Assembly (NCBI GenBank): GCA_049999805.1
Contig: JBNGIO010005629.1
Location: forward strand, 1 to 38,311
DNA from: Folioceros fuciformis
Lineage: Eukaryota
Length of the DNA stretch: 38,311 nucleotides
Reading direction: 5' to 3'
This document shows, piece by piece, positions 534-28,018 of this stretch (positions are counted from its first letter, which is position 1; every line of letters starts with the position of its first letter). The position numbers were made by a program, and so were the translations under genes. The notes beneath the pieces were generated by a model. It saw only the letters and a list, made by a program, of their open reading frames with translations. It did not search any database and had not been told where the DNA came from.

Positions 534-2810
534 TCATGGTCGACCCTTACAACTGCAGCAACCAGCTGCAAATCGATGCACACGGTACCCATCCCTTACC
601 ACAATGTCTCTCTTTTCAACCCTTGACATGACCTCGGTGGAACTGTGACAGTCACTGCACATTCGTAAATTCTTCGTTACCACCAAAGGTGTGCCATTGG
701 GAGTGTTCAGCAGACCAAAGGCTAGAGCTAGCTTCTCGGCATGCCCACAAAGCACGTCTTCCTTTTCCCTTTCAGACAATTGCTTCAAAACCAACTTGGT
801 CTGAGGTACGTGGCCCCCTTTCTGCTTCAGACGTGAATTCATGCTCTCTACCTGGAGATCAAGATCATGTCTGTTTTCTCCCACTACGAATCTATGTACC
901 TGCTTCTCCACCTCAATGCCCGCTACTGCAGGTTTCTTGTTCGCTCCCGCTACCATTCTCTGTGTTTCAATCCTGTCCACATCGGCCCACCTACCTGCGT
1001 CGGCATACGCATTGGCCATGAGCACATACGCGGATGCACACTGAGGCTCCAGTCTCACGAGGCTTTCGAAACACCGCGTTGCCCTCTCCACATCACCATG
1101 ACTTTTGCATGCGTTCAGCAAGGACGTCAATGCCACAGCATTGTCTTGGCTTTCACTTGACAATAGCATGTTCTCTGCCTCATCCAAATGGCCTGCACGC
1201 CCAAGGAGATCAATCATACAATTGTAGTGCTCAACATTAGGTTGGATGCCGTGCCGTTCAACCATGGAATCAAAGTGCTTGCGACCCTCATTCACCAGTC
1301 CCCCACGACTGCACGCCCCTAAAAGGCACGTGAAAGTAGTATCATCAGGCTGGATACCAGCACCTATCATCTCCTCGAAACAAGCCAGAGCAGTGTGAGC
1401 TGCATCACAGCTACCACATCCTGCTATCAAGGCATTCCACGTCACCACATTCTTCTTGGCCAAGCTGTCGAAGACACGGCGTGCATCTTCCAGTTCACCA
1501 CACTTGGCATACATGTCCACCAGGCTGGTGCCTACAAGAATGTCACTCAGTTGTCCTCTTTCCACAATCTGTGAGTGCAGCTGCCTGCCCATCTGTAAAG
1601 CACCGCCGCTTGCACAGGCCTTCAGGAGGCAGGCAAAAGTGACACAGTTGCCCACAACAAGGCCCTCCTGCTCCATTTGTCCAAACACAAGAAGCGCCTC
1701 TTGGCCGAGCCCACGATTAGCATACCCAGCTATCAGGGCTGTCCAGGTTACCACATCCTTTTCGGCCAAGCTGTCAAACACCCTGCGTGCGTCTTGGAGT
1801 TCACCACATTTTGCATACATATCCACGAGGCAGTTGCCTACAAAAAGGTTAGGAGAAATGCCACTGTGCAGCAAATCAGAGTGCACCTTTCTGCCAGATT
1901 CCAAGTCCGCAGCAAATGCACAGGCTTGAAGCGCCGCTACAAACACGTGAGCATCCGCCTGCACACCTGAGCTGCGCATCTCATGATAAAGCTGGATGGC
2001 CTCGGTGGCTTTCCCGTGCTTGGCATTCGCGGAGATAATAGAAAACCACATAAAGGCATCCGGTTTTCCCACCCTGGTGAACACATCCATGGCCTCCTGC
2101 AGCCTCCCACCACATGCATACATGCGCAACACATGGTTCCCCAAGTACGTATCTGACTCATACCCAAGCTCCACAATGAGGTCATGAACTCGACGACCAG
2201 CATCAAGATCCTTCTTGGCTGCGCACAGTTTGAGCACACCGTACAAGAGAGACTGCGAAATGAGACAGTCCTTCCGCACGAGACATTCCAACGCTTCAAG
2301 GGCCTCGGCAAGCTTCCCCTGCTGACATAACGTGCTCACGCTCACAGCCGTGACGATGCCCGTTGCCGATCCCGCATGCCTGCCAGGCCCGGAAACACCC
2401 CGGGGCCTGGAATTGGAAGGCGAGGTACTACGACCCACATTCAGATCCAAAGACAAGAGCTGTTCATCCACCCAAGCTGGTTTCAACAAATTGTGCAACC
2501 AAAGGACCTCACCGGAACCCTTTCGCCGGAAGTGAGGCGAACGAGAGCTCTTCTCACCTCGCCTGTTATCCCACCACATGGCAGGGTCAAGAAAAAATTG
2601 TCGCCACAAGAGCTCCTGCTCGTGGCGACCACCATCGCTGGAAAATCTGTTCCCAGCCATCCATTTCGTGGGAACCGGTGGCTGCCTTACCCCGCTGCAC
2701 CTGATTGCAACGTTGTTCGCCAGCGCTTCACAGTCTGAGGTGATGGCATCGGGAGCTCCTCGTGACAGCCTTGAACACCCAACAAAATCCGGTTGCCACG
2801 CTGTGGCCAT
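534..2810 (-). CDS. PLS-class PPR protein with N-terminal PDF-like motif and C-terminal E1-E2-DYW:KP (GRP-type) domain; candidate organellar U-to-C editing factor (short array)
   Basis: Uninterrupted 758-aa ORF. P (VVTWxALI), L (TFACLLKAC) and S (LVDMYAKCG) motifs are followed by P2-L2-S2, E1/E2 and KPAVAGIEV...HAEKLA...CSDCH...CSCKGRP*. Confidence 0.93.
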   Translation of the reverse strand: MATAWQPDFVGCSRLSRGAPDAITSDCEALANNVAIRCSGVRQPPVPTKWMAGNRFSSDGGRHEQELLWRQFFLDPAMWWDNRRGEKSSRSPHFRRKGSGEVLWLHNLLKPAWVDEQLLSLDLNVGRSTSPSNSRPRGVSGPGRHAGSATGIVTAVSVSTLCQQGKLAEALEALECLVRKDCLISQSLLYGVLKLCAAKKDLDAGRRVHDLIVELGYESDTYLGNHVLRMYACGGRLQEAMDVFTRVGKPDAFMWFSIISANAKHGKATEAIQLYHEMRSSGVQADAHVFVAALQACAFAADLESGRKVHSDLLHSGISPNLFVGNCLVDMYAKCGELQDARRVFDSLAEKDVVTWTALIAGYANRGLGQEALLVFGQMEQEGLVVGNCVTFACLLKACASGGALQMGRQLHSQIVERGQLSDILVGTSLVDMYAKCGELEDARRVFDSLAKKNVVTWNALIAGCGSCDAAHTALACFEEMIGAGIQPDDTTFTCLLGACSRGGLVNEGRKHFDSMVERHGIQPNVEHYNCMIDLLGRAGHLDEAENMLLSSESQDNAVALTSLLNACKSHGDVERATRCFESLVRLEPQCASAYVLMANAYADAGRWADVDRIETQRMVAGANKKPAVAGIEVEKQVHRFVVGENRHDLDLQVESMNSRLKQKGGHVPQTKLVLKQLSEREKEDVLCGHAEKLALAFGLLNTPNGTPLVVTKNLRMCSDCHSSTEVMSRVEKRDIVVRDGYRVHRFAAGCCSCKGRP
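2457..2615 (-). other. PDF-like (OSB-type ssDNA-binding) motif, copy in gene 534-2810
   Basis: ELLWRQFFLDPAMWWDNRRGEKSSRSPHFRRKGSGEVLWLHNLLKPAWVDEQL; PDF is changed to PHF. Confidence 0.8.
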
Positions 2811-3344
2811 CCCACAGGCTCGTGTTTCGGAAATTGAGACCCACAGTAAGCGCTACGCACGGGGTGGCAAGACGCCAAGCACGCTTCTAGAAAGCGCCGT
2901 GCGTGGGCAAGTACTATGCTCTTTCTCCTGCCATATACACCAGGCCAGGTACCTGACAAGGGACAAGCTGTTTTGCTCTTTTCCCCACTTTCTGGAGCCT
3001 ACATAAAACTCCGCATTATTTTGTTGATATAAGGAATACTTAATATAATAAACAAATATGATAACTCGACATATGTACTTGACAAGAAGTTCCTATACTA
3101 CAGCACTGCATATGCAAGAACCAACAGAGGGTTAGAAGTCGCGTCATAGACTGGTGTGGGCTAACGATGCTTGGCTACGAGTGATGGACAAAGCCAGAGT
3201 GATCAGTGCATGTACAAAGTTTTCCCCCAGTGCGCGATCAGTGCACCGGGGGTTCCAAGGTGTGCACCCATCGCTTCAAACGGGGCCAAAAACTTGCTCA
3301 TCCCCTCCCCTTCCCTCGTCCAGAAGTTGCGGCCATTATCGCCT

Positions 3345-6300
3345 TCAGTTTGCAGAGTTGGATTGACTTCCAACCATAAAACTGTGCACCAGGCCGTCCA
3401 TGTCGGTCCACCAGCACTGGCCTGGCTGCTTCCATGACCCTATTTCTTTCCGTCTCGCTTGAATCTCCTTTGCCTGCTCCCACATTTGGGCACTCGCGTA
3501 TATGTTGGACATCAGCACATAAGCTGCGGCATCGTTCTTGTTCAGCTTAACTGCTTCTTCGAAAGCGTGACGGCCCACCTCCACGCTCTTCCATTTTCCA
3601 CAAGCACTAAGTAGAGTGCGCCAAAGTGTGTCCTGAGGCTGCACAGGCATAGCCCTGACAAGCGCTAGAGCCTGGTCAAGTTGGCCTGAGCGACCTAGGA
3701 GGTCCACCATGCATGAGTAGTGCTCTGCACTGGGACTGATGCTGTAATCTCTGCTCATAGCCTCAAAGTACTCTTGCCCTGTGTTCACGAGGCCTGCATG
3801 ACTGCAGACGGTTAGCACACTGAGAAATGTGATACCATCTGGATGTATGCCATGTTCTCTCATTCGGCGGACCAAGTCCAAGACCAACGCACAGTCTCCT
3901 TGACGGGTGTATCCTGCTAAAAGCGCATTCCAGGCAACGATGTGCTTTCTGGGCAATGCTTCAAACACCTGCTGAGCCTCATCGACGCTCCCCGCCTTTG
4001 CGTACATGTCAATCAAACTGATGGCTACCGACGAATTGTTCTCAAGCCCCAGTTGTTTGATCTTCACATGAAGATCCCTGCCCAGGTGCAAGGCTCCGAC
4101 AATCGCACACGCTTGCAGGAGGCACACAAATGTCACAACATCCAGAGTGACGATTTCTTCGCGCATAGCTGTGTAAAGCTCAAGGGCTTCCGTGGCCTTG
4201 CCCTGCTCAGAATATCCTGCTATCATCACATTCCACGTAACTACATCTTTCACACCGAGTCCATCAAACACACTGCGAGCATCCTCTAGGCTGCCACACT
4301 TTGCATACATGTTTATCAGATTGTTGCCAACAGTCACATGGGCCTGGAGACCTTGTTCTTCAATCTGAACATGAAGCCGTTTCCCTTTCTCTAGGGCTTC
4401 GAAACCCACGCTTGCACATGCCTGCAGGAGACAGACATATGTTGCAGAGTTAGGTGTGGTCACACCTCCTTCTTGCATTGCAGTGTACAGACGGAGAGCT
4501 TCCTCACCCATGCCCTGTTGGGAATATCCTGATATCAGGGCTGTCCACGTCACCACCTCTTTTTGAGTCAATCCATAAAACACGTTCTGGGCGTCCTGTA
4601 AGCTGCCGCATTTGGCGTACATGTCTATCAAACTGTTGGCTACAAATATATCAAGTTGCCGGCCCTGTTCTTGAATTTGTCCATGAAGCTGCTTCCCCGT
4701 CTCCAACCCCAATTCACCCATGCTGGCACAGGCCTGCAGTAGGCACGCAAATGTCACGGAATCGGGTGGAACAAGCCCTTCATCTTGCATGGCACTGTAA
4801 AGATGGAGGGCTTCCTGAGCCATGCCTTCTTCGGCGTATCCAGCTATCAGAGAGGTCCATGTCACCACATCTTTTTGTGAAATCTGGTCGAAGATGCTCT
4901 GCGCATGCCGTAGGCTGCCACACCTTGCATACATGTTTATCAAACTATTGGCTACAGATACATTGCCTTGAAAGCCCTGTCGGACAATCTGAGCATGGAG
5001 TTGCTTACCAATGTCTAGAGCCATGGCACCCACACTTGCACATGCCTTCAGGAGGCACAGGAATGCCACTGAATTCAGTGGCTCGATGCCTTCGGCTTGA
5101 ATGGCACTGTAAAGATCGAGGGCCTCCTGACCCCTGCCCTGCTGGGAATATCCTGCTACCAAAGTGGTCCAGGTCACCACATCTTTTCGAGGCAGATTGT
5201 TAAACACAGTCTGTGCAAGCTGTAGGCTGCCACACTTCATGTACATGTTTATCAAGCTGTTGGCAACAAACACATCATCTTGAAGCCCTTGCTCTTCAAT
5301 CTCAGCATGGAGCTGCTTTCCCATCTCAATAGCTATGACACCTAAACTTGCACATGCCTGCAAGAGGCACACAAACGTTACAGAATTGGGTAGAAGGATG
5401 CCTTCGTCTCTCATAGCACCGTAAAGATGAAGAGCTTCATCACCCATGTCTTGCTGGGAGTATCCTGCAATCATGGCATTCCATGTGACAACATCCTTTT
5501 GATGTAGCCCATCAAAAACAACCTGGGCATCCTCTAGGCTGCTACATTTCACATACATATTAATCAGACTGTTGCATAGAATTACATCTGACTGGAGGCC
5601 CTGCTTTTCAATCTGTGCATGGATCTGCTTACCCCTCTCTATGGCCTCGGCACCAACACTCGCACATGCCAGCAGGAGGCAAACAAATGTCACAGAATTG
5701 GGTGCAGAAATGCCTTCTTCTACCATACCACTGTAAAGATGAAGAGCTTCCTGACCCATGCCGTGCTGGGAATATCCTGCTATCAAAGAGGTCCAGGTCA
5801 CCACGTCTTTCTGTGGACGCCTGTCAAACACGCTCCGGGCATCCTCAAGGCTGCCACACTTCACATACATGTTTATTAAATTGTTGCCTACAAGCAACTC
5901 GTTCTGAAGGCCTTCTTCTTCGATCTGTGAATGAAGCAGCTTCCCCTGGGCCAAAGCAGGGTTACCAACACCTCCACATGCCTGCAGTGCGCAATTAAAT
6001 GTCACAGAATCAGGTGGTGTGACCCCTTCTTCTCGCATACAACTATAGAGACGAAGGGCTTCGTGATTCTTGCCGTGCTGGAAATATCCCGCTATCATGG
6101 CATTCCACGTCACCACATCTTTGTGACGAAGTCTGTCAAACACCCCCTGAGCGTCTTCTAAGCTGCCACACTTTGCATACATGTCTATCAAGCAGTTAGA
6201 TACAAACAAATGAGGTTCAACACCACACGCCAACACATCAGCATGCACCTGCTGCCCCGATTCCAAATCTGCTCCCCTTGCACAAGCCTGCAGAGCCGCT

Positions 6301-7016
6301 ACAAACACATGCCCATCTGCCTTCACAGATGAACTACGCATGTCATGATATAATTGTATGGCCTCTATCACTTGTCCATGTTGAACATGCGCTGAGATAA
6401 TAGAGGACCACATAAAGGCATCTGGTTGGACAACCATGGTGAACACATCCATCGCTTCCTTCAACCGTGCATGAGAGGCATACATTCGCAGGATGTGGTT
6501 GTTCAGGAACGTGTCCGACTCATACCCCGCTTCCAGTATGAGAGCATGAACACGACGACCCAGAGCCGAATGCTTCTTAACCCGGCAGGTTTTGAGAACA
6601 GTGTAGAAGAGGGACCTGGAAACAGAAAACTCGGCATGTACCAGGGTGCCTAGGGCCCTCACGGCGTCAATAAGCTCACCCTCCTGACACAGTCTGTACA
6701 CGGTTTGACCTGTTATGCCATTTTCGTATCCTGCAGTCCCCGGAGGTTCACTTGCATTCGACAAACTCATTTCCCTCACTCGAAACTCGGAGACATGGGA
6801 CCAACTATTCAAACAGAGGGACTGGTCTGGGACAGACCGTCGCCACAAGAGTTCCCCCTCGCTGGAAGGCCCTTCTCCTTCTTTTCTTCCCCTGGATCGA
6901 TCCTGCTCCGCCATCATGGGACACCTTGCAGTCAGGCTAGGGGCCACGCTTCCTGTCATCATGCAGTTTGGTCTTTGGCCTGCGTGCCAATGAAATCCAA
7001 CTCTCCGGACAAGCAT
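3345..7016 (-). CDS. Long PLS-class PPR protein ending in E1-E2 plus a truncated WW-type PG box (no deaminase core); probable C-to-U editing specificity factor
   Basis: 1223-aa ORF with about 7 internal ~104-aa P-L-S triplets, P2-L2-S2 and E motifs. It ends KQPGQCWWTDMDGLVHSFMVGSQSNSAN* with no HxE or CxxC. The start codon is uncertain (several Met near the N-terminus). Confidence 0.9.
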   Translation of the reverse strand: MLVRRVGFHWHAGQRPNCMMTGSVAPSLTARCPMMAEQDRSRGRKEGEGPSSEGELLWRRSVPDQSLCLNSWSHVSEFRVREMSLSNASEPPGTAGYENGITGQTVYRLCQEGELIDAVRALGTLVHAEFSVSRSLFYTVLKTCRVKKHSALGRRVHALILEAGYESDTFLNNHILRMYASHARLKEAMDVFTMVVQPDAFMWSSIISAHVQHGQVIEAIQLYHDMRSSSVKADGHVFVAALQACARGADLESGQQVHADVLACGVEPHLFVSNCLIDMYAKCGSLEDAQGVFDRLRHKDVVTWNAMIAGYFQHGKNHEALRLYSCMREEGVTPPDSVTFNCALQACGGVGNPALAQGKLLHSQIEEEGLQNELLVGNNLINMYVKCGSLEDARSVFDRRPQKDVVTWTSLIAGYSQHGMGQEALHLYSGMVEEGISAPNSVTFVCLLLACASVGAEAIERGKQIHAQIEKQGLQSDVILCNSLINMYVKCSSLEDAQVVFDGLHQKDVVTWNAMIAGYSQQDMGDEALHLYGAMRDEGILLPNSVTFVCLLQACASLGVIAIEMGKQLHAEIEEQGLQDDVFVANSLINMYMKCGSLQLAQTVFNNLPRKDVVTWTTLVAGYSQQGRGQEALDLYSAIQAEGIEPLNSVAFLCLLKACASVGAMALDIGKQLHAQIVRQGFQGNVSVANSLINMYARCGSLRHAQSIFDQISQKDVVTWTSLIAGYAEEGMAQEALHLYSAMQDEGLVPPDSVTFACLLQACASMGELGLETGKQLHGQIQEQGRQLDIFVANSLIDMYAKCGSLQDAQNVFYGLTQKEVVTWTALISGYSQQGMGEEALRLYTAMQEGGVTTPNSATYVCLLQACASVGFEALEKGKRLHVQIEEQGLQAHVTVGNNLINMYAKCGSLEDARSVFDGLGVKDVVTWNVMIAGYSEQGKATEALELYTAMREEIVTLDVVTFVCLLQACAIVGALHLGRDLHVKIKQLGLENNSSVAISLIDMYAKAGSVDEAQQVFEALPRKHIVAWNALLAGYTRQGDCALVLDLVRRMREHGIHPDGITFLSVLTVCSHAGLVNTGQEYFEAMSRDYSISPSAEHYSCMVDLLGRSGQLDQALALVRAMPVQPQDTLWRTLLSACGKWKSVEVGRHAFEEAVKLNKNDAAAYVLMSNIYASAQMWEQAKEIQARRKEIGSWKQPGQCWWTDMDGLVHSFMVGSQSNSAN

Positions 7017-8247: not shown

Positions 8248-11200
8248 TCACGGTCGACCCTTACAACTGCAACACCCAGCTGCAAATCGATGCACACGGT
8301 ACCCATCCCTTACGACAATGTCTCTCTTTTCAACCCTTGACATAATCTCCGTGGAACTGTGGCAGTCACTGCACATCCGTAGATTCTTCGTTACGACCAG
8401 GGGGGTGCCACTTAGAGTGTTCAAGAGACCAAACGCCAGAGCCAGCTTCTCAGCATGCCCACAAAGCACATCTTCCTTTTCCTTCTCAGACAGTGGCCGC
8501 AACACCAACTGGGTGTGTGGTACATGGCCTCCTTCCTGCTTCAGACGTGCATTTACGGTCTCAACCTTGAACGCAATATGTTCCCTGTTTTCCCCCACAA
8601 CAAACGTATGTACCTGCTCTTGCACCTCAATGCCCGCCACCGCGGGCTTCTTATTAGCTCCTGCTACCTTTCTCTGGGTATCAATCCTGTCTACATCGGC
8701 CCACCTACCTGCGTCTGCATAGGCGTTGGCCATGAGCACATATGCCGATGCACCCTGAGGCTCCAGTCTGACGAGACTTTCAAAACACCGCCTCGCCCTC
8801 TCTATATCCCCGTGTGTCTTGCAGGCATGCAGCAACGAAGTTAAACCCACAACATTGCTTCGGCTCTCACTTGATTCCAGCATGTGCTCTGCCTGATCTA
8901 AATGGCCAGCACGCCCAAGAAGATCAATCATGCAATTGTAATGCTCAACTGTCGGCTTGATGCCATGTTGATCAACCATGGAATCAAAGTGCTTGAGACC
9001 CTCGGTCACCATTCCCGCATGACTGCATGCTACCAGAAGGCAGGTAAAAGTAGCATCATCAGGCGAAATACCAGCGCCTAACATCTCCTCAAAACAAGCT
9101 AGTGCGCTGTGACCTTCGTCACAGTTACCACACCCTGCGATCAGCGCATTCCACGTCACCACATCCTTTGCGGCCAAGCTATCAAAGACGCTGCGTGCAG
9201 ATGGCAGGTCGCCACATTTTGCATACATGTCGACTAGGCAGTTGCCCACAAGTATGCTACCGAGCTGTCCTCTTTCCACAATCTGCGAGTGTAGCTGCCT
9301 ACCCTTCTGCAAGGCACCAACGCTTGCACAGGACTTCAGAAGGCAAGCAAACGTAACATGGTCAGCCAAAACCAGGCCCTCCTGCTCCATTTCTCCATAC
9401 AGAACAAGCGCCTCTTGGCCGAGCCCTTGCTGAGCATATCCAGCGATCAGGGCATTCCATGTGACCACATTTTTGGTCAGCAAGCTGTCGAAAACCAAGC
9501 GTGCATCTTCGAGTTCGCCAAACTTTGCATACATGTCCACCAAGGAAGTGCCCACAAGTAGGTTCCCAAGGTGTCCTCTTTCCACAATCTGAGAGTGCAG
9601 CTGCCTACCCTTCTGTAGAGCATCAGAGCTTGCACAAGCCTTCAGCAGGTAAGTGAAAGTGACATGGTCAGCCACAATCAGTCCCTCCTGCTCCATTTGT
9701 CCATACAAGACAAGCGCCTCCTGACCTGGCCCGTGGTTTGCATACCCACCAATCAGGGCATTCCATGTGACCAAATTTTTTGTGGCCAAACTGTCAAAAA
9801 CCCTGCGTGCATCTTCCAGTTCGCCACATTTTGCATACATGTCCACCAGACAAGTGCCCACAAGTATCTGCTCTACATGGGCTGTTTCAACAATCTGTGA
9901 GTGCAGCTTCCTGCCCCTATGTAAGTCACCAATGCTTGCACAGGCCTTCAGAAGGCAAGCGAAAGTAACCTCGTCAGCCACAACCAGTCCCTCCTGCTCC
10001 ATTTGTTCGTACAAAGCAAGTGCTTGTTGACCAAGCCCGTGATCGGCATAGCCAGCAATAAGGGAATTCCAGGTCACCACATTTTTTGTGGCCAAGCTGT
10101 GAAAAACCTGGCTTGCATCTTCCATTTCTCCAAACTTTGCATACATGTCCACAAGGGAAGTGCCCACAAGTATGTTCTCTAGCTGTCCTCTTTCCACAAT
10201 CTGAGAGTGCAGCTGCCTGCCCTTCTGTAGGGCGCCCGCGCTTGCACAGGCTTTCAGAAGGCAAGCAAAAGTGACATGGTCTGCCACAATCAAGCCCTCC
10301 TGCTCCATTTGTCCGTACAGAACAAGGGCCTCTTGACCGAGCCCGTGATTGGCATACCCACCTATCAGGGCCGTCCATGTCACCAGATTTTTTATCGCCA
10401 TGTTGTCGAAAACCCTGCGTGCATCTTCCAGTTCGCNNNNNNNNNNNNNNNNNNNNNNNNNNNNNNNNNNNNNNNNNNNNNNNNNNNNNNNNNNNNNNNN
10501 NNNNNNNNNNNNNNNNNNNNNNNNNNNNNNNNNNNNCAGTTACCCACCAGTATATTGTTTAGCTGTCCTCGTTCCACAATCTGCGAATGCAGCTCCCTGC
10601 CCCTCTGTAGATCAGCAGTGCTTGCACAGGCTTTCAGAAGGCAAGCAAAAGTAACATGGTTACCCACAACCAGGCCCTCCCACTCCATTTGTCTATACAA
10701 AGTAAGTGCTCGCTGGCTGAGCCCATGGATAGCATACCCATCAATCAGCGCCGTCCATGTCACCACATCCTTTGTGGTCAAGCTGTCAAAAACCGTGCGT
10801 GCAGCGTCCAGATCGCCACATTTTGCGTACATGTCCACGAGGCAGTTGCCGACAAATAAGTTAGGGGGAATGCCACTCCGCAGAACATCACTATGCACAT
10901 TTCTGCCAGATTGCAAGTCCGCAGCAAACGCACAGGCTTGAAGGGCAGCTACGAAGACGTGACCATTCGCCTTTACACCCGAGGTACGCATCTTGTGGTA
11001 CAGTTGGATGGCCTCTTCCGGCTTCCCATGTTTAGCATGTGCAGAGATAATAGAAAACCACATGAAACAATCTGGCTTACCCACCCGGTTGAACACATCC
11101 ATGGCCTCCTGTAGCCTACCTCCACGTGCATACATGCGCAAGATATGGTTCCCCAAGTATGTGTTTGACTCGTACCCGAGTTTGACAGTGAGGTCGTGAA

Positions 11201-11852
11201 CTCTTTGCCCCAGAACCAGATCCTTCGTAGCCGCACACTGTTTGAGCACAGTGTAGAAAAGAGACTGAGAAATGGGACTGCCAGTCTCTACACGAGACTC
11301 CAGGGCTCGTACGGCGTCAGCAAGCTTTCCCTGCTGACATAACGTGCTCACAGTGACAGCCGTGATCACGCCCATTTCCGACCCTGCCCTCCTGCGAGCC
11401 TCGGGAATATCCAGAGAGCTCGACTTGGAAGGCGAGGCACCATGGCCCATCCGAATATCCAAATAAACGAGCTGCTCATCCACCCAAGGTGGCTTGAACA
11501 GGCTGTTCAACCAGAGGACCTCGCCAGTCCCCGTATGCCAGAAGTCAGGCGAACGGAGACTCTGCTTACTTCTCCTGTTATCCAACCACATGGCAGGGTC
11601 CAGAAAAAATTGTCGCCACAGGAGGTCCTGCTTCTGCTGTTCCTCCTGGCGACCAATGTCAGTGGAAAATCCTTCCGTAACCATGCATTCTCTCGGGACC
11701 ACTGCGTGCCACACACTGCCGCTCCTGAAGGCTCGGTTGTTTTTCATAGCTGGACTCGCCAAGGTGAGGTGCGCGGAAGTTCCTGGTACAAGCCCTGCAG
11801 AGCAATCAACGTGTTGGGTCCACAACGAATCGGGTTGCCATTGTAGAGCCAT
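8248..11852 (-). CDS. PDF-like + PLS-PPR + DYW:KP (GRP) protein; one gene split by the N gap at 10437-10536
   Basis: ORF 10392-11852 stops at ILVGNC before the gap and the sequence resumes at GELEDARR of an S motif, continuing into ORF 8248-10401. It ends HAEKLA...CSCKGRP*. There are at least 5 internal triplets. Confidence 0.9.
11469..11627 (-). other. PDF-like motif, copy in gene 8248-11852
   Basis: DLLWRQFFLDPAMWLDNRRSKQSLRSPDFWHTGTGEVLWLNSLFKPPWVDEQL; PDFxHxxTGE and PPWV are retained. Confidence 0.85.
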
Positions 11853-19700: not shown

Positions 19701-19893
19701 TACCATCCTTCAAGGACCGCTTTCGGAAGATGTGAGCACAACAAACTATCCTATTACAGTAAGGTAGATCATGGCACGCTGAATCGTAAGCAGGAGTGTT
19801 TGACCATTTGCAGATGGGACTCGCGAGAACCCGGAAAGGCTGCTTCAGATCACGAGAAGCACCGAATGGTAAAGCAATCGACATCAGAGACAT
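16789..19893 (-). CDS. PLS-PPR DYW:KP protein (terminal SRP) with a degenerate PDF-like motif and a distinct, longer N-terminal leader
   Basis: 1034-aa ORF with 3 internal triplets, ending KPAVAGIEV...HAEKLA...CSDCH...CSCNSRP*. Confidence 0.92.
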   Translation of the reverse strand: MSLMSIALPFGASRDLKQPFRVLASPICKWSNTPAYDSACHDLPYCNRIVCCAHIFRKRSLKDGNCMAAGSVLDPKNRRVYKETSRSTRSLHLTSSFGGKWPSLQVQLCEVPSNWTGVEGFSCGFGRQEQHHEPDLLLGQNFLDPVMCWDNRIGKESSRGPDLCRNGSGEVLWSNSMCKSGWVDDQLISMDMHVDHGDSPCKWRSPNKPGPGRYEVLNMGVLTAVTVRTSCQQGKLTEAVEALESLARTKRLIPHSVFYIVLKLCATKKDLVMGRRVHELAVKLGYDSSPYLANHILRMYACAGRLEDAMDVFARVGEPDAFMWFSIISAHAKHGKPKQAIQLYHEMRSSGVKADAHVFVATLQACAFASDVESGRKVHCDVLHSGIPPNLFVGNCLVDMYAKCGKLEEAHRVFDSLATKDVVTWNALIAGYADKGNGQTALVLYGQMQQEGLIVGSHVTFVCLLKACASAGALQRGMQLHSQLVERGEADNILVSTCLVDMYAKCGEFKDALRVFQSLATKNVVTWTALIAGYASRGLYQEALVLYEQMEQDGLIVGNHVTFACLLKACASAGAGALQTGRQLHSRIVERGQLDNILVGNCLVDMYAKCGALEDAHKVFVSLTAKDVVTWNSLIAGYADYGLGEKAIVLYRQMEEEGLIVADEVTFACLLKACGNAGALQKGRELHSQIVERGQQDNIVLGNCLVDMYAKCGELEAARQVFNSLATKDVVTWNALIGGCGTCDEGHNAISCFEEMLVAGIQPNDATFTCLLAACSHEGLVKEGCQYYNSMLFQHGITPCIEHYNCMIDLLGRAGHLDEAENMLLSSESQSNVVGLTSLLNACKSHGDVERARRCFESLVRLEPQSASAYVLMANAYADAGRWADVDRIETQRMVAGAYKKPAVAGIEVKKKVHTFVVGENHRDEITRKVHSMNARMKQESGHAPHTKLVMKPLNEKEKEDVLCGHAEKLALAFGLLNTPSGTPLVVTKNLRMCSDCHSSTEIMSRVEKRGIVVRDGYRVHRFAGGRCSCNSRP
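19333..19491 (-). other. Degenerate PDF-like motif in gene 16789-19893
   Basis: DLLLGQNFLDPVMCWDNRIGKESSRGPDLCRNGSGEVLWSNSMCKSGWVDDQL; several aromatic residues are lost. Confidence 0.7.
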
Positions 19894-20866: not shown

Positions 20867-23800
20867 TCACGGTCGACCCTTGCAACTGCAACAACCAGCA
20901 GCGAATCGATGGACACGGTAACCATCTCTTACAACAATGCCTCGCCTTTCCACTCTGGACATGATCTCTGTGGAAGTGTGGCAGTCACTGCACATGCGTA
21001 GATTCTTCGTCACCATCAAAGGTGTGCCGTTCGGAGTGTTCAAGAGACCAAACGCCAGGGCAAGCTTCTCAGCATGACCGCAAAGGGCATCCTCCTTTTC
21101 CTTCTCAGAGAATTGCTTCAGCACCAATTTCGTGTCGGGCAAATGACCCTCTTGTTGCCTCAGTCGCGCAGTCATACTCTCTGCCTTCAGCGCAATCTCG
21201 TCATCTCTGTTTTCTCCGACCACAAACGTATGTACCTGCTTCTCAACCTCAATGCCCGCCACTGCAGGCTTCTTGTTAGCTCCTGCTACCATTCTCTGTG
21301 TTTCAATCCTGTCTACATCGGCCCACCTACCCGCATCTGCATATGCATTGGCCATGAGCAAATATGAGGATGCACACAGAGGCTCCAGTCTAACGAGACT
21401 TTCGAAACAGCGCACCGCCCTGTCTATATCCCCGTGACTCTTGCAGGCGTGCAGCAAAGACGTTAACCCCACGACATTGCCTTGAGTTCCACATGATACT
21501 AGCATGTCCTCTGCCTCATCTAGATGGCCTGCACGACCAAGAAGATCTATCATGCAATTGTAATGCTCAACAGTAGGGCTGATGCCCTGGTGTTCAACCA
21601 TGGAGTCAAAGTGCTTGCGACCCTCTTTCACCAGTCCTTCCTGACTGCAAGCAACTAACAGGCAAGTAAGAGTAGATTCATCAGGTTGAACACCAGAGGC
21701 TAGCATCTCCTCAAAACAAGCTAGTGCGTTGTAACCTTCACCAGACGTACCACAACCAGCTATCAGGGCATTCCATGTCACCACATTTTTCTGTGTCAAG
21801 TTGTCAAAAACCCTGCGTGCAGTATCTAATTCTCCACACTTTGCATACATGTCCACCAGGCAGGTGCCAACAACTACGTTATCCAGTTGTCCTCTTTCCA
21901 CAATCTGTGAATGAAGCTGCATGCCCGTCTGTAATGCACCGGCAATTGCACAGGCCTTCAGAAGGCAAACGAAAATAACATCGTCAGCGACAGTCAGGCC
22001 CTCCTGCTTCATTCGTTCATACAGAACAAGTGCTTCTTGGCCAAGCCCATGATTTGCATATCCAGCTATGAGGGCTGTCCATGTCACCACATTTTTCATA
22101 GACAAGCTGTCAAAAACCTGGCGTGCATCTTCCAGTTCGCCACATTTAACATACATGTCCACCAAGCAGTTGCCAAGAAGCATGTTATCCAGATGTCCTC
22201 TTTCAACGATTTGTGAATGCAGCTGCTTCCCCTGATGCAAGGCACCAACGCTTGTACAGGCTTTAAGGAGGCAAGCAAAAGTGACATGGTTAGCCATTAG
22301 CAAGCCTTCCTGCTCCATCTGTGCGTATACAACAAGCGCCTCTTGGCCAAGCCCATGATTAGCATACCCGCCTATAAGGGCTGTCCATGTCACGACGTCC
22401 TTTGCAGTCAAGCTGTTAAAAGCTCTCCGTGCTTCTTCTAGTTCGCCACATTTAGCATACATGTCCACCAGGCACGTTCCCACCAGTGCGTTATCTAGCT
22501 GTCCTCGTTCCACAATCTGTAAGTGCAGCTGCTTGCCCTTCTGTAAGGCACCAGCGCTTGCACAGGCCTTGAAAAGGCAAGCAAACGTGACATGGTTACC
22601 CACAATCAGGCCCCTCTGCTCCATTTCATCATGCAACACAAGTGCCTCTTCACAGAGCCCATGATTAACATACCCAGCGATCAGGGTCGTCCATGTTACC
22701 ACATCCTTTGTGATCAAGCTGTCAAAAACATTGCATGCATCTGCCAGTTCACCACATTTCACATACATGTCCACAAGGCAGTTACCCACTAGTAGTTTAT
22801 CTAAATGTCCTCTTTCCGCAATCAGTGAGTGCAGTTGCCTGCCCTGCTGCAAGGCACCAGTACTTGCACAGGCCTTCAGAAGGCAAGCAAATGTCACATG
22901 GTCAGCCACAATAAGGCCCTCTAGCTCCATCTGTCCGTACAGAACAAGCGCCTCTTGACCAAGCCCATGATTCACATACCCAGCTATCAGGGCCGTCCAC
23001 GTCACCACATCCTTGGAGGCCAAGCTGTCAAAAACCCTGCGTGCATCTTCCAGTTCGCCACACTTTGCATACATGTCCACCAAGCCGTTGCCAACAAACA
23101 AGTCAGGAGGAATGCCACTATGCAACACATCACAATGCACTTTTTTGCCAGATACCAAGTCCGTAGCATATGCACAAGCTTGAAGGGCTGCGACAAAGAC
23201 CTGAGCATTCGCCTTCTCACCTGAGATTTGCATCTCATGGTACAATTGAATGGCCTCCTTAGGTTTCCCATGTTTAGCATGAGCGGAGATAATGGAAAGC
23301 CAGATAATGGCATCTGGCTTTCTCACTCTGGTGAACACATCCATAGCCTCCTCAAGCTTACCTACGCATGCATACAACCGCAAAATATGGTTACCCAAGT
23401 ACGCATTTGACTCGTACCCAAGCTTCACGACGATATCATGTATTCGTCGTCCCACAACCAGATCCTTCTTAGCAACACACAATTTCAGCACAGTATGCAA
23501 CAGAGATTGAGATACAGGCGAATTTGCCGCCAGAAATTCTAGGGCCTCGACGGCTTCTGTCAGCTTTCCCTGCTGACACAAACAGCAGACGGTTACATCA
23601 GTTACGACGTCCATTTCAGCTCCTGAACGCCTGCCAGGCTCAGACTTGTCCGGAGACGCACCGTGACCCTTCTGCATATCCAACGAATCCAGCTGCTCAT
23701 CCACCCAAGCTGGCTTGACCAAGTTGTTTAACCAGAGGACTTCTCCAGACCCCTTACGCCGGAAGTCGGGCGATCGGGAGCTCTTCTTATCCCGTCTGTT

Positions 23801-24159
23801 ATCCCACCACATACCAGGGTCGAGAAAAAATTGTCGCCACAAGAGCTCCTGCTGCTGGCGACCACCATCGCTGGAAGTACCTTCCCCAGCAGTAAATTTC
23901 CTTGGGAGAGCTGGGTTGCCTANNNNNNNNNNNNNNNNNNNNNNNNNNNNNNNNNNNNNNNNNNNNNNNNNNNNNNNNNNNNNNNNNNNNNNNNNNNNNN
24001 NNNNNNNNNNNNNNNNNNNNNNCTGCACCTGCAGTCTAGGTTGTCTACCAGCGGTCGGCTCCCTGACATGATCTGAGTGGGAGCTGTTGGCAGCTTGCCC
24101 TTAGACCCACCAATTTGTTGAATCCATACGGAATTCGGTTGCCATATCACAGTGGCCAT
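20867..24159 (-). CDS. PDF-like + PLS-PPR + DYW:KP (GRP) protein; true start probably ATG 24159, across the N gap at 23923-24022
   Basis: MATVIWQPNSVWIQQIGG at 24159 matches the paralog starts MATVWPPDSLWTQQIGG and MALQWQPDSLWTQ. It has 4 internal triplets and ends CSCKGRP*. Confidence 0.9.
23690..23848 (-). other. Best-preserved PDF-like motif, in gene 20867-24159
   Basis: ELLWRQFFLDPGMWWDNRRDKKSSRSPDFRRKGSGEVLWLNNLVKPAWVDEQL. Confidence 0.85.
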
Positions 24160-24473: not shown

Positions 24474-24502
24474 AGGGTTTAGGGTCTAGGAATCTAAACC
24501 CT
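24474..24502. promoter_or_regulatory. Oppositely oriented telo-box-like motifs in the divergent intergenic region
   Basis: agggtttaggg followed by ctaaaccct, near the midpoint between ATG 24159 (-) and ATG 24827 (+). Confidence 0.35.
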
Positions 24503-24826
24503 GAACATCAACATCGGAGAAAAATGCAAGCATTGCAAGTTTGACTTGTTGATGCTTCTTGCATCCTCCCTGATGGCACAGTCGAGTGGGAGTTGCAGGT
24601 GACACTCCCCATCCGGGCGGTAGGGAGCATGGAATTATGGTACGACGCATCAGGGCATATTTGTTTCCCTTCATCAGGCTGAACGATTATCTGTTTGACA
24701 GTAACACTGAGAGTGGCAAACATCGAAATGGGCAGGTCAGGCTGGGTTAGAGATCTTGGTGGTGCCCGTTGTTAGGATGGTCTACGGGTAGTGTGAGTCT
24801 CGATTTCGCAGAGCGGTGCCTGAAAG

Positions 24827-27800
24827 ATGGCGACAGTCTGGCCACCGGATTCATTGTGGACCCAACAAATTGGTGGATGTGTGCGGATTTCGGAAGGAAC
24901 TGTTGCTCACCCCACCTCTGACAAGGAAGCCTCCAGGTACAGCTCTGTAAAGAACCTAGCGCTTCCAAGAAACTGGTTGGCCGTGGAACCATTTCCCAGT
25001 AATGGAGGTCGACAGGAGCAGGAGGTATTGTGGCGCCTATTTTCTCTGGACCCTGACATGCGGAGGGATAACAGGCGAGGTAAGAAGAGCTTCCGTTCAC
25101 CTGGGTTCCGGCGTAAGGGGTCCGGCAAGGTTCTCTGGTTAAACAGCTTGTTCAAGACAGCTTGGTTGGATGAGCAGCTTGTTTGGTTGGATCTGCAGAT
25201 TGCTCATGGGGCGTCTTCTTGCAAGTCGAGGCAATCGGACAAGCCCGGGCATGGCAGACGTGCAGGATCGAGAAGGGGAGAAGTAACGGCTGCGAGAGTG
25301 AGCACGTTTTGTCAGCAGGGGATGCTCACCGAGGCCGTTGGAGCCCTGGAATCTCTGGCGCAGTTGGACAGTCCTATTTCTCAGGCTCTCTTTTACTCTG
25401 TGCTCAAATTGTGTGCAGCTAAGAAGGATGTGGTTGTGGGGCGACGAGTTCATGATCTTACCGTCAAACTTGGGTACGAGTCGAATGCATACTTGGGGAA
25501 CCATATCGTGCGAATGTATGCATGTGTAGGTAGGCTACAGGACGCCATGGATGCGTTCAGCAGGGTGGGCAGACCAGATACCTTCATGTGGTTCTCCATA
25601 ATCTCTGCATATGCGAAGCATGGGAGGCCTGACGAGGCCATACAACTGTATCGTAAGATGCGTAGCTCAGGCGTGAAGGCAGATGCTCACGTCTTTGTTG
25701 CAGCCCTCCAAGCTTGTGCGCTTGCTTCGGACTTGGAATCAGGCAGAGAGGTACATGGTGATGTGTTGCTCAGTGGCATTCCTCCCAACTTGTTTGTCAG
25801 CAACTGCCTGGTGGACATGTACGCAAAATGTGGCAAGCTAAGCGAGGCACGTGAGGTTTTTGACAGCTTGCCCAGGAAGGATGTGGTCACATGGACGGCC
25901 CTGATAGCTGGGTATGCAAATCATGGGCTGGGCCGAAAGGCGCTTATTCTGTATGGGCACATGGAGCAAGATGGGCTGATTGTGGGTAACCATATAACTT
26001 ATACTTGCCTTCTTAAGGCCTGCGCAACTGCTGGTGCCTTAGAGCAGGGCAGGCAGCTGCACTCACAGATTGTGGAAAGAGGACAGCTGAATACCGTACT
26101 GGGCAACTGCTTGGTGGACATGTACGCAAAATGTGGTGAATTGGAAGATGCACGGAGGGTGTTTGACAGCTTAGCCACAAAAAATGTGGTGACATGGACT
26201 GTCCTCATAGCTGGGTATGTGAATCATGGGCTCAGTCAAGAGGGGCTTGATCTGTATGGACTAATGGAGCAGGAGGGCCTGATTGTGGCTGACGAGGTTA
26301 CTTGTGCTTGCCTTTTGAAGGCCTGTGCAAGTGCTGGTGCCATACAAAAGGGCAGGCAGCTGCACTCACAGATTGTGGAAAGAGGACAGCTGGATGATAT
26401 ACATGTGGGCACTTCCCTGGTGGACATGTATGCAAAGTGTGGTGAACTGGAAGATGCACGCCAGGTTTTTGATAGCTTGGCCACGAAAAATGTGGTGACA
26501 TGGACGGCCCTGATTGCAGGGTATGCACAACAAGGTCTTGGCAAGGAGGCGCTTGCTCTGTATGGACAAATGGAGCAGGAGGGCCTGATCATGGCTGATG
26601 AGATCACCATCGCTTGCCTTCTCAAGGCCTGTGCAAGTGCTGGTGCCTTGCAGCAGGGCAGGCAGCTGCACTTACAGATTGTGGATAGAGGAGAGCTAGA
26701 TAACTTAGTGTTGGGCAATTGCCTGGTGGACATGTACGCAAAATGCGGCCAACTGGAAGTTGCAAGTGAGGTTTTTGACGGCTTGTCCTCAAAGAATGTG
26801 GTGACATGGACGGCCCTTATAGCTGGGTATGCTAATCACGGGCTTGGTCAAGAGGCTCTTGTTCTGTTCAGACGAATGGAGCAGGAGGGCCTGCTTGTGG
26901 CTGATGGGGTTACGTTTGCTTGCCTACTGAAGGCATGTGCAAGCGTCGGTGCCTTACAGAAGGGCAAGCAGCTGCACTCGCAGATTGTGGACAGAGGACA
27001 GCTGGATAACATACAAGTGGGCACTTGCCTAGTGGACATGTATGCAAAATGTGGCGAACTGGAAGAGGCACGCCGGGTTTTTGACAGCTTGCCCACAAAA
27101 GACGTGGTGGCATGGAATGCCCTCATAGCTGGGTGTGGTACTTGTGATGAAGGTCACAACGCACTAGCTTGTTTTGAGGAGATGTTAGTGGCTGGTGTTA
27201 AGCCTGATGATGCTACTTTTACTTGCCTTCTAGTAGCGTGCAGTCATGAGGGGCTGGTGAGTGAGGGTCTCAAGCTCTTTGATTCCATGATGAAAAAGCA
27301 TGGTATCAAACCTACTGTTGAGCATTACAATTGCATGGTTGATCTTCTTGGGCGTGCCGGCCATTTAGATGAGGCACAGAACATGTTGTTATCATGTGAC
27401 TGCCAAAGCAATGTTGTGGGGTTGACATCTTTGCTGAATGCATGTAAAATTCACGGAGATATAGAGAGGGCGACTTGGTGTTTTGAATGTCTCGTTAGAC
27501 TAGAGCCTCAGAGGGCAGCCGCTTATGTGCTCCTGGCGAATACCTATGCAGATGCAGGTAGGTGGACGGATGTAGAGAGGATAGAAAGACAGAGAATGGT
27601 AGCAGGAGCTAACAAGAAACCTGCAGTGGCGGGCATTGAGGTGAATGAGCGGGTACATACATTTGTGGTTGGGGAATGCGGAGATGATGTTGCATTCAGG
27701 GTAGAGAGCATGAATGCACGTTTGAAGCAGGAAGGGAGCCATGTGTCACATACAAAGTTGGTGTTAAAGCCGTTGTCTGAGAAAGAAAAAGAAGATGTGC

Positions 27801-28018
27801 TTTGTGGGCATGCTGAGAAGCTAGCCCTGGCATTTGGTCTCTTCAACACTCCGAGTGGCACACCCCTCATGGTGACTAAGAATCTGCGCATGTGCAGTGA
27901 CTGCCACAGTTCCACAGAGATTATGTCAAGGATTGAGAAAAGAGACATCGTTGTGAGGGATGGCTACCGTGTGCATCGATTCACAGCTGGTTGTTGCAGT
28001 TGTAAAGGTCGAGCGTGA
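24827..28018 (+). CDS. PLS-PPR DYW:KP protein (terminal GRA) with a partly degenerate PDF-like motif; head-to-head with the preceding paralog
   Basis: 1063-aa ORF with 4 internal triplets, ending KPAVAGIEV...HAEKLA...CSCKGRA*. Confidence 0.93.
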   Translation: MATVWPPDSLWTQQIGGCVRISEGTVAHPTSDKEASRYSSVKNLALPRNWLAVEPFPSNGGRQEQEVLWRLFSLDPDMRRDNRRGKKSFRSPGFRRKGSGKVLWLNSLFKTAWLDEQLVWLDLQIAHGASSCKSRQSDKPGHGRRAGSRRGEVTAARVSTFCQQGMLTEAVGALESLAQLDSPISQALFYSVLKLCAAKKDVVVGRRVHDLTVKLGYESNAYLGNHIVRMYACVGRLQDAMDAFSRVGRPDTFMWFSIISAYAKHGRPDEAIQLYRKMRSSGVKADAHVFVAALQACALASDLESGREVHGDVLLSGIPPNLFVSNCLVDMYAKCGKLSEAREVFDSLPRKDVVTWTALIAGYANHGLGRKALILYGHMEQDGLIVGNHITYTCLLKACATAGALEQGRQLHSQIVERGQLNTVLGNCLVDMYAKCGELEDARRVFDSLATKNVVTWTVLIAGYVNHGLSQEGLDLYGLMEQEGLIVADEVTCACLLKACASAGAIQKGRQLHSQIVERGQLDDIHVGTSLVDMYAKCGELEDARQVFDSLATKNVVTWTALIAGYAQQGLGKEALALYGQMEQEGLIMADEITIACLLKACASAGALQQGRQLHLQIVDRGELDNLVLGNCLVDMYAKCGQLEVASEVFDGLSSKNVVTWTALIAGYANHGLGQEALVLFRRMEQEGLLVADGVTFACLLKACASVGALQKGKQLHSQIVDRGQLDNIQVGTCLVDMYAKCGELEEARRVFDSLPTKDVVAWNALIAGCGTCDEGHNALACFEEMLVAGVKPDDATFTCLLVACSHEGLVSEGLKLFDSMMKKHGIKPTVEHYNCMVDLLGRAGHLDEAQNMLLSCDCQSNVVGLTSLLNACKIHGDIERATWCFECLVRLEPQRAAAYVLLANTYADAGRWTDVERIERQRMVAGANKKPAVAGIEVNERVHTFVVGECGDDVAFRVESMNARLKQEGSHVSHTKLVLKPLSEKEKEDVLCGHAEKLALAFGLFNTPSGTPLMVTKNLRMCSDCHSSTEIMSRIEKRDIVVRDGYRVHRFTAGCCSCKGRA
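25022..25180 (+). other. Partly degenerate PDF-like motif in gene 24827-28018
   Basis: EVLWRLFSLDPDMRRDNRRGKKSFRSPGFRRKGSGKVLWLNSLFKTAWLDEQL; WW is changed to RR and PDF to PGF. Confidence 0.7.

Follow-up and report, generated by a model that had tools for sequence, protein, structure and literature searches.

A compact array of six PPR genes in Folioceros fuciformis includes five candidate DYW:KP editing factors of the GRP subgroup that carry an OSB-type PDF motif

The window, by which we mean the whole 38,311-nt stretch of Folioceros fuciformis DNA that was analysed (contig JBNGIO010005629.1), very probably holds six nuclear, paralogous PPR genes of the PLS class in a local array that is both compact and old; five of these would encode organellar editing factors of the GRP subgroup of DYW:KP proteins, with a role in U-to-C editing by analogy to their family. 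Three of these five are single unbroken ORFs, namely g1 (534..2810, minus strand; PPR-E1-E2-DYW:KP, 758 aa, terminus GRP), g4 (16789..19893, minus strand; PPR-DYW:KP, 1034 aa, terminus SRP) and g6 (24827..28018, plus strand; PPR-DYW:KP, 1063 aa, divergent from g5, terminus GRA). The other two PPR-DYW:KP genes, g3 (8248..11852, minus strand) and g5 (20867..24159, minus strand), both have the terminus GRP, and each is crossed by one of the three 100-N assembly gaps in the window. The gap in g3 (10437-10536) lies within the PLS array, flanked by open frames of 438 and 729 codons in different phases, and that in g5 (23923-24022) lies in the N-terminal leader, with the ATG at 24159 on its far side. 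Among the sequencing-run contigs listed, none bridges either gap. An earlier, sequence-only reading of this DNA had described a cluster of five intact genes; the number of DYW:KP genes stands, intactness is verifiable for g1, g4 and g6 only, and a sixth PPR paralog inside the array had gone unmentioned.

This sixth gene, g2 (3345..7016, minus strand; 1223 aa), is, as judged from its translation, an E+-like PLS paralog without a deaminase. It stops after E2 with a PG-like KQPGQCWWT box, Pfam detects no DYW domain in it, and no DYW remnant was found downstream in three frames of 2811-3440. According to the literature, enrichment of the E+ class is confined to hornworts.

The C-terminal domains of the five DYW:KP proteins were compared with profiles, structures and one another. 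Counted from the K of KP, they measure 133 or 134 aa, and together with the stop codon they occupy 534..935 in g1 (133 aa, minus strand; PF14432 E 7.1e-34), 8248..8649 in g3 (133 aa, minus strand; E 5.9e-32), 16789..17193 in g4 (134 aa, minus strand; E 6.4e-32), 20867..21271 in g5 (134 aa, minus strand; E 6.9e-33) and 27617..28018 in g6 (133 aa, plus strand). In Pfam, each of the five matches both PF14432 (DYW_deaminase; E from 1e-31 to 7.1e-34) and PF20431 (E_motif; E from 2e-11 to 2e-15), which excludes a chance match. Each domain has KPAVAGIEV aligned opposite the EPGCSWIEV of 9kfx, HAE at residue 65/66, CSDC at 93/94 with a spacing of 28 residues from HAE, CSC at 127/128, and Lys88 (K89 in the 134-aa copies) within KNLR; in g1 these elements read HAE65, Lys88, CSDC93 and CSC127, followed by GRP. 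All catalytic and zinc-binding residues are thus present in five of five, and the xHP stretch is missing from every domain. The terminal triplet is exactly GRP in three of the five (g1, g3, g5). The five translations bear out the KPAVAGIEV, HAE, CSDC and CSC motifs and the missing SHP that had been noticed at the outset, together with the five domain coordinates and the order of C-termini, GRP, GRP, SRP, GRP and GRA for g1, g3, g4, g5 and g6.

Alignment of the g6 domain with 9kfx, a solved synthetic PPR-DYW protein (E 6e-39), places a four-residue gap opposite SHPQ and HAE opposite HSE. The stretch ..SSTE[IV]MSR.., present in all five, aligns to ..TATKFISK.. of 9kfx, with Glu opposite the Lys of PG-type domains (the CH..TK stretch). 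This site was located by alignment, our own count being one residue off the K103 numbering of the published work, and its occupation by Glu in five of five fits the K-to-E change reported for GRP proteins in PMC9478123. An AF2 model of the g6 domain gave six Foldseek matches at E<=1e-3, all from the DYW structures 9kfx, 7o4f, 7o4e and 7w86 (E 1e-13 to 2e-7); two segments that separate the KP-box hairpin from the HAE helix, model residues 42-56 and 58-72, are of low confidence (pLDDT <50). In the ESM Atlas, residues 760-1063 of g6 matched DYW/PPR clusters only, with taxa given no finer than Streptophyta.

Pfam PPR families match all five proteins at E 4e-53 to 5e-100, and the PPR motifs segment cleanly into 35/36-, 35- and 31-aa units. 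The resulting PLS triplets show a periodicity of 306 nt (102 codons) in g3, g4, g5 and g6; g1 has four triplets, the other genes between six and at least eight. Central triplets are 76-87% identical within genes as between genes, so that the order in which PLS units were duplicated is not readable. The P and S motifs were read with the PPR code table, and the residue codes differ between all five genes; different target sites are therefore expected for the five proteins.

In addition to the PPR array and the editing domain, each of the five DYW:KP proteins has a single N-terminal motif of the type found in OSB proteins, the PDF motif, preceded by a leader of about 50-120 residues. It is located at 2436..2651 in g1 (minus strand; triad PHF), 11448..11663 in g3 (minus strand; PDF), 19312..19527 in g4 (minus strand; PDL), 23669..23884 in g5 (minus strand; PDF; AF2 pLDDT 88.7) and 24965..25180 in g6 (plus strand; PGF), the exact P-D-F triad thus being kept in two of five copies and degenerate in g1, g4 and g6. 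No such motif is detectable in g2. A HMMER profile built from the five copies retrieved 472 proteins at E<=1e-3, including proteins named 'OSB1, mitochondrial-like'; among 150 listed matches, the motif follows an SSB OB-fold in 33 and stands at the N-terminus ahead of PPRs in 13. A word-indexed search with the PDF region among shorter proteins yielded 18 candidates, none at E<=0.01. No Pfam family matched the N-terminal pieces, even at E<=10.

The window proteins share with OSB proteins a motif of 58-72 residues with the consensus ..LW..FF.DP..WWDNR..K...R.PDF.HK.TGEALW......P.WV..QL. OSB proteins, in contrast, carry C-terminal copies of the motif behind an SSB OB-fold, whereas the window proteins have one N-terminal copy fused to a PPR array. 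The OB-fold family PF00436 was found neither in the window proteins at E<=0.01 nor in their N-terminal pieces at E<=10, and hence the PDF-PPR proteins share the motif only and are not members of the OSB family. Comparison of the motif fold with the PDB by Foldseek (none at E<=1e-3, best E 5.8) and with 48,161 chains by VIA-align (none at Z>=5, best Z 4.1) indicates neither a new nor a known fold. In the literature searched we found no description of an OSB motif fused to PPRs, although Gerke et al. 2020 and Gutmann et al. 2020 may mention the N-terminal motif or the loci; the presence of a PDF motif on PPR editing factors is thus an apparently unreported feature.

In a tree of the editing domains, all 31 HAE entries form one clade (100/100) apart from all 19 HSE entries. 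The window's five domains are monophyletic (100/99), and together with four GRP-ended homologs they make up a nine-member GRP subclade (100/98). Their assignment to the GRP subgroup of DYW:KP domains is supported by motifs and tree alike; as the initial classification had proposed, they group with the KP (HAE) clade and not with the canonical PG type. Together with published statements on the subgroup, this placement makes a hornwort the most likely source of the array. Over the C-terminal 204 residues, identity to the closest database proteins is only 68%, and the best relatives (P0006, P0007, P0008, P0010) show 64-69% identity over the E2-DYW stretch.

PMC9478123 divides hornwort DYW:KP proteins into DRH and GRP subgroups and cites Gerke et al. 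2020 for a catalogue of GRP-type members in Anthoceros. With the GRP subgroup the window proteins share the KP box, HAE, the missing xHP, a length of ~133 aa, Lys88, Glu at the site of the PG-type Lys, the G/S-R-P/A terminus and the PLS-E1-E2 architecture, differing in that two of the five end in SRP or GRA. With the DRH subgroup, on which designer KP1 is based, they share the HAE/KP clade and the zinc, Glu and Lys88 core; they lack both the terminal-triplet Asp and the Lys of the ..STK.. stretch that DRH proteins retain. The C-to-U factors of the DYW:PG type (the OTP86 DYW domain in 7o4e/7o4f, DYW1 in 7w86, and 9kfx) have the same deaminase fold and HxE..CxxC signature (sequence E 6e-39 to 4e-27), whereas the window proteins have KPAxA for the PG box, HAE for HSE, SHPQ deleted and GRP for DYW, and the reaction predicted for them is the opposite one. 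The five genes belong to an already catalogued class, and as candidates they therefore do not stand out from the many that hornwort genomes contain, each with 1,583-2,308 PPR genes according to the literature.

The direction of editing was considered in the light of published work on KP proteins (PMC9478123 and PMC11845758). In the former, the GRP-based designer proteins KP2 and KP3 perform U-to-C but no C-to-U conversion, whether in E. coli or in HEK293T cells, and HAA and AxxA mutations abolish the activity of designer KP proteins; in the latter, Lys88 is essential for U-to-C editing by designer KP proteins and K88A switches them to C-to-U. According to these papers, U-to-C activity has been shown for the designers KP2, KP3 and KP6 alone, the activity of natural KP proteins is described as unknown as of 2025, and U-to-C is alone among pyrimidine transitions in that no working natural enzyme has been demonstrated for it (both in PMC11845758). 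We infer from the family that the five proteins have U-to-C activity and organellar targets; the description of them as natural candidates for such editing is a fair one.

It is unlikely that the five are instead C-to-U or two-way editors, in which case the KP/GRP signature would not dictate the natural direction. In human cells designer KP6 carries out U-to-C and C-to-U editing alike, and the choice between HAE and HSE does not tell the two reactions apart (PMC9478123); a single K88 substitution turns KP2, KP3 and KP6 into efficient C-to-U editors (PMC11845758); U-to-C editing by KP proteins could not be reconstituted in vitro, according to the literature; and the zinc and Glu deaminase core is intact in the window proteins. 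KP6, however, rests on fern sequences and not on GRP sequences as KP2 and KP3 do, all five window proteins retain the Lys88 on which the direction depends in the designers, and the KP clade is limited to lineages with U-to-C editing, both in PMC9478123 and in further literature.

Selection on the array was assessed from synonymous and nonsynonymous divergence. At dS 0.6-0.9, the DYW domain has a mean dN/dS of 0.12; the means for P2-E2 and for the two leading triplets are 0.19 and 0.18, and that of the PDF motif, 0.28, exceeds all other regions compared. Such low ratios at this divergence indicate that the copies are both old and constrained. This bears on the quite improbable view that some copies, with g4 (SRP), g6 (GRA) and the short-array g1 as candidates, are decaying or have no catalytic activity and would be RNA binders at most. 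The variation of terminal triplets, the four PLS triplets of g1, the degenerate PDF triads of g1, g4 and g6, and the neighbouring paralog g2, which has already lost its DYW domain, would be in keeping with such decay. Against it stand the complete set of catalytic and zinc residues with Lys88 in five of five, DYW dN/dS values of 0.07-0.19 (dS 0.58-1.31) throughout the pairwise comparisons, g4 and g6 being no exception, ORFs of 758-1063 codons without a stop, and a spliced, mismatch-free contig over the g4 3' end.

The contig in question comes from one of the sequencing runs used (X1, X2 and X3 among them), namely X3, which is taken as RNA by guess. One X3 contig overlaps the g4 stop region without mismatch and skips a putative GT..AG intron of 202 nt in the 3' UTR of g4 (16446..16647, minus strand), through which contigs of the DNA runs read, an indication that g4 is transcribed. 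Between 12184 and 15503 X3 has no contigs although the DNA runs have, and nothing was drawn from this hole; depth over the PPR repeats, being inflated by multi-mapping short contigs, was not used. In X3 record 31, 164 letters upstream of 24735 do not align and adjoin a possible AG acceptor; a 5' UTR intron at this place was rejected as too weak. It is very improbable that the array is partly an assembly artefact, with collapsed or chimeric joins across the PLS repeats and a wrong gene number or order: three 100-N gaps (two inside PPR genes), highly similar central triplets and many short contigs that fit two places would allow it, but runs of two studies supply contigs of 553-1,897 nt that cover the unique spacers between genes, and the gene ends, without mismatch (X3 record 28, at 18994-20890, begins in the 5' part of g4 and reaches the 3' end of g5, and X1 and X2 records, which may be the assembly's own data and so are not independent support, cover 15701-16917 and 24024-25360), and the five genes differ by dS 0.5-1.3, so that they are not duplicated reads of one locus.

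For the six-gene array with its five DYW:KP proteins, a mechanism can be proposed from the family. The five proteins would be imported into plastids or mitochondria by a presumed transit peptide, and the fifth and last residues of each P and S motif would let the PLS array recognise a cis-element on the 5' side of the target. With S2 opposite position -4, the C-terminal domain would be placed on a uridine. There the zinc site (His65, Cys93, Cys96), Glu67 and Lys88 would turn U into C by way of a Schiff base between lysine and uridine, the intermediate that has been put forward for designer KP proteins. The PDF motif, which follows the presumed transit peptide and precedes the first PPR, could raise the affinity for single-stranded nucleic acid on the 5' side of the PPR footprint independently of sequence, or else anchor the factor at the nucleoid. 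According to a review (PMC6963530), AtOSB1 can bind ssDNA through its PDF motif alone; RNA binding by the motif is something we purely infer. We tentatively suggest that the motif might be a functional accessory module of PLS-class editing factors in seed-free plants, serving either to clamp single-stranded nucleic acid or to anchor the factor at the nucleoid and so couple editing with transcription, a possibility that we hold to be doubtful.

The literature describes designer KP proteins as stalling in bacteria as RNA-protein crosslinks. If the suggestion is correct, the PDF motif could help natural enzymes to complete the reaction and release the product where designer proteins fail. KP2 and KP3 consist of a synthetic PLS tract and consensus C-terminal domains only, whereas the window proteins have the N-terminal motif. 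The same holds more widely: the motif is carried by natural GRP-type proteins and is missing from every designer KP editor, which makes it a concrete, deletable difference between the two. The added value of the array lies in this motif, the genes themselves being few among many such genes in hornwort genomes. As unbroken natural GRP-type genes under purifying selection with readable PPR codes, g1, g4 and g6 are ready test objects, g1 being the most convenient at 758 aa. PDF-PPR fusions were also retrieved in ferns, Selaginella and Sphagnum with the profile of the five copies, so that the combination of OSB motif and PPRs spans mosses, lycophytes, ferns and this genome.

The window (38,311 bases, about 50% G+C, three 100-N gaps) contains six long open reading frames within 534-28018, each encoding a PLS-class pentatricopeptide-repeat (PPR) protein. 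Five of them carry a DYW:KP domain: g1 (534-2810), g3 (8248-11852), g4 (16789-19893) and g5 (20867-24159) on the minus strand, and g6 (24827-28018) on the plus strand, divergent from g5. The cluster of five DYW:KP genes described in the sequence-only reading is thus present, but its span also holds a sixth paralog, g2 (3345-7016, minus strand), which lacks a deaminase. The genes had further been called intact. This could be verified for g1, g4 and g6, whose frames are unbroken, whereas g3 and g5 are each crossed by a 100-N gap. The gap in g3 (10437-10536) lies inside the repeat array and is flanked by open frames of 438 and 729 codons; their phases differ, as expected because the gap is a placeholder. 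That in g5 (23923-24022) falls in the N-terminal leader, with the start codon at 24159 and the 45 codons ahead of the gap resembling the start of g6.

Translation of g1, g3, g4, g5 and g6 gave the C-terminal triplets GRP, GRP, SRP, GRP and GRA, respectively, and reproduced the proposed domain limits, the lengths being 133 residues (g1, g3, g6) or 134 residues (g4, g5) when the KP-box Lys is taken as residue 1. All five domains contain KPAVAGIEV, HAE, CSDC and CSC, and all five proteins matched the Pfam family DYW_deaminase (E 1e-31 to 7e-34) as well as the E motif. The claimed loss of the SHP motif was recovered in an alignment of g6 with 9kfx, a synthetic PPR-DYW protein of solved structure (E 6e-39), in which a four-residue gap faces SHPQ and HAE faces HSE. 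Lys88, within KNLR, is kept in all five domains. In the CH..TK stretch all five have Glu at a site occupied by Lys in PG-type and DRH-type domains; the site was located by alignment, our own residue count being one off K103 of PMC9478123. In that paper Ichinose et al. report a paired K-to-E and D-to-G change in GRP proteins, which the Glu of the window's domains fits.

To classify the domains, the C-terminal 204 residues of g6 were used as the query of a protein search, which returned 491 candidates, 45 of them at E<=1e-3, the closest being 68% identical; proteins of the host itself are absent from the collection searched. The best 26 of these 45 homologs all have HAE, four ending in GRP and eight in DRH; the remaining 19 have HSE and mostly DYW-like ends. 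A maximum-likelihood tree was built from the full set of 50 domains (the 45 homologs and the window's five, none left out). In it the 31 HAE sequences formed one clade (support 100/100), within which the four GRP-ended homologs and the window's five made up a subclade (100/98) and the window's five were monophyletic (100/99). The motifs and the tree together bear out assignment to the DYW:KP class, GRP subgroup. The E2-DYW stretch of g6 was also modelled with AlphaFold2 (mean pLDDT 73). Two parts of the model exceed pLDDT 84, the KP-box hairpin and the region running from the HAE helix almost to the C-terminus; the segment separating them is below 50. At E<=1e-3 the model matched the PDB six times (E 1e-13 to 2e-7), always in the DYW entries 9kfx, 7o4f, 7o4e and 7w86, with other cytidine deaminases ranking next.

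GRP and DRH are the two hornwort subgroups of DYW:KP domains, and the designer proteins KP2 and KP3 were built on GRP sequences, KP3 drawing on the Anthoceros angustus genome. In E. coli both gave about 22-26% U-to-C editing and no C-to-U activity, and their HAA and AxxA mutants are inactive (PMC9478123). Later work reports that U-to-C editing needs Lys88, a change of which turns designer proteins into C-to-U editors (PMC11845758), and that designer proteins stay crosslinked to RNA, with a lysine-uridine Schiff base as the proposed intermediate (PMC11332814). U-to-C activity dependent on HAE, CxxC and Lys88 is established for the class through designer proteins. In 2025 the same group still called the activity of natural KP proteins unknown (PMC11845758), and a search of the literature from 2023 on showed, by titles and abstracts, no test of a natural KP protein. 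The products of g1, g3, g4, g5 and g6 are putative organelle-targeted U-to-C editors of distinct sites. The sequence-only reading had proposed them as natural candidates for U-to-C editors; what is known of the class supports that proposal, which is based on sequence, although the class itself is already catalogued. The observation is real and its interpretation correct, and the genes are new members in a type of genome with very many of them. The host is probably a hornwort, and each hornwort genome contains 1,583-2,308 PPR genes, a number reached mainly through dispersed duplication.

A further conserved region with 23 invariant columns, about 60-125 residues in from the N-terminus, is common to the five DYW:KP proteins. 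It is encoded at 2436-2651 (g1), 11448-11663 (g3), 19312-19527 (g4) and 23669-23884 (g5) on the minus strand and at 24965-25180 (g6) on the plus strand. No Pfam family matched it. A profile made from the five window copies alone was searched against 1.84 billion representatives and retrieved 472 proteins at E<=1e-3, 101 of them at E<=1e-10, many with 2-13 repeats of the motif. The consensus common to these proteins and the window copies is ..LW..FF.DP..WWDNR..K...R.PDF.HK.TGEALW......P.WV..QL. Matches include a protein named 'OSB1, mitochondrial-like protein' from Drosera capensis, and a cluster-mate is named 'protein osb1 mitochondrial' (Phtheirospermum japonicum). We scanned 149 of the 150 listed matches against Pfam (32 at E<=1e-5, 117 at E<=1e-6); in 33 of them the motif follows an SSB-type OB-fold. 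Sequence comparison thus shows the N-terminal motif to be homologous to the PDF motif of OSB proteins, which a review (PMC6963530) describes as 50 residues sufficient for ssDNA binding in AtOSB1. The structure of the motif is confidently predicted (pLDDT 88.7, pTM 0.74) as a helix, a small sheet and a helix, and nothing in the PDB clearly resembled it.

The motif is followed by PPR repeats in 12 of the 149 scanned matches, or 13 with P0008, a homolog whose domains were taken from the g6 C-terminal search. Named PDF-PPR fusions come from Ceratopteris richardii, Adiantum capillus-veneris, Selaginella moellendorffii and Sphagnum compactum. The spread of the fusion over several lineages, together with a canonical DYW terminus in the Sphagnum compactum protein, means that the architecture is old and not restricted to the KP type. 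Of the 45 homologs retrieved with the g6 C-terminus, only three have the motif, two GRP-ended and one DRH-ended; some of the other 42 have gene models that begin at the first PPR. The fusion is not mentioned in the PDF-motif passages of PMC6963530, nor are PPR proteins in a 2026 paper on the OSB family, and a literature search for an organellar ssDNA-binding motif at a DYW N-terminus returned no description; Gerke 2020 or Gutmann 2020 may mention it. In a DYW:KP protein the PDF motif would add a putative single-strand nucleic-acid binding or nucleoid-anchoring function, and it is this apparently undescribed architecture that deserves further study. One scanned match (P0103, 1526 residues) has the motif upstream of a kinesin motor, and the rest had no Pfam family at the thresholds used; long motif-only arrays comprise 13 copies in 1160 residues (P0051) and 11 copies in 908 residues (P0063).

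Selection was assessed by the Nei-Gojobori method over all ten pairs of the five DYW:KP genes. Mean dN/dS was 0.12 for the DYW:KP domain (mean dS 0.89), 0.19 for P2-E2 (0.60), 0.18 for the first two triplets (0.82) and 0.28 for the N-terminal PDF motif (0.71), with no outlier among the pairs, including those with the SRP (g4) and GRA (g6) copies. All five copies are old, and purifying selection acts on them throughout. At the DNA level their central PLS triplets are a repeat of 306 nt, with one copy in g1, three in g4, four in g5, four in g6 and five or more in g3. The arrays at 9140-10436, 17676-18714, 21756-23097 and 25800-27134 have 3.4-4.4 copies at 75-80% match; the repeat adjoins the gap in g3 and probably caused it. 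Triplet identity is 76-87% whether two units come from one gene or from different genes, and copy number varies among paralogs, which suggests unequal exchange among the central triplets.

In the PPR code, residues 5 and last of P and S motifs specify the base, TD reading G, TN A, ND U, NS C and NN C or U. With this table, each gene gives its own P/S string over the stretch running from triplet three to S2 (for instance, A-A U-Y in g1, G-A U-A U-A U-U U-Y in g3 and A-Y G-A G-Y G-G U-Y in g6), and the five proteins should therefore recognise different cis-elements.

The product of g2 (1223 residues) stops soon after E2 and has a PG-like box, KQPGQCWWT, in contrast to the KP box of its neighbours. 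We found neither a DYW domain nor a downstream remnant of one in g2, and, unlike the five DYW:KP proteins, it has no PDF motif. It is an E+-like protein, a class that, according to a 2026 survey, is enriched in hornworts only (PMC13386178). The triplet period of g2 is 312 nt (6.7 copies). Because its first triplet resembles the first triplets of the KP genes and the PG-like box does not resemble theirs, the C-terminus may have a different origin.

A 999-nt contig from X3, a run whose kind is a guess (no run is recorded as RNA), overlaps the stop region of g4. It aligns without mismatch as two blocks, 16915-16646 and 16443-15715, and leaves out about 202 nt that, read on the minus strand, open with GT and close with AG after a pyrimidine-rich tract. 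This stretch is covered without a break by contigs from the DNA runs X1 and X2. The skip, seen in one X3 contig, is best read as splicing of the g4 3' UTR, the GT..AG intron (16446-16647, minus strand) lying 141 nt past the stop codon. X3 also has contigs without mismatch within g3, g4, g5 and g6, but expression cannot be ranked from contigs.

Intergenic spacers measure 0.5-1.2 kb except between g3 and g4, where the 4.9-kb spacer falls to 33% G+C and contains one gap (14691-14790, 100 N) and short tandem repeats. The repeats of this low-G+C spacer (33-43%), at 12757-13051, 14415-14532 and 15660-15911, comprise a 42-nt unit in seven copies (94% match) and smaller ones. Other tandem arrays occur at 28211-28477 (68 nt, 3.9 copies), at 29687-30759 (a 158-nt satellite, 6.8 copies, 86% match) and at 37966-38311 (125 nt, 2.8 copies, 99% match), the last continuing past the window end. 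At 30863-33090, on the plus strand, two adjoining frames match the MULE transposase, ZSWIM RNaseH-like and SWIM zinc-finger families and represent a Mutator-like transposase or a domesticated derivative. A cytochrome P450 gene of at least two exons lies at 35717-37586 on the plus strand, with the haem-binding site PFGAGRRMCPG in exon 2.
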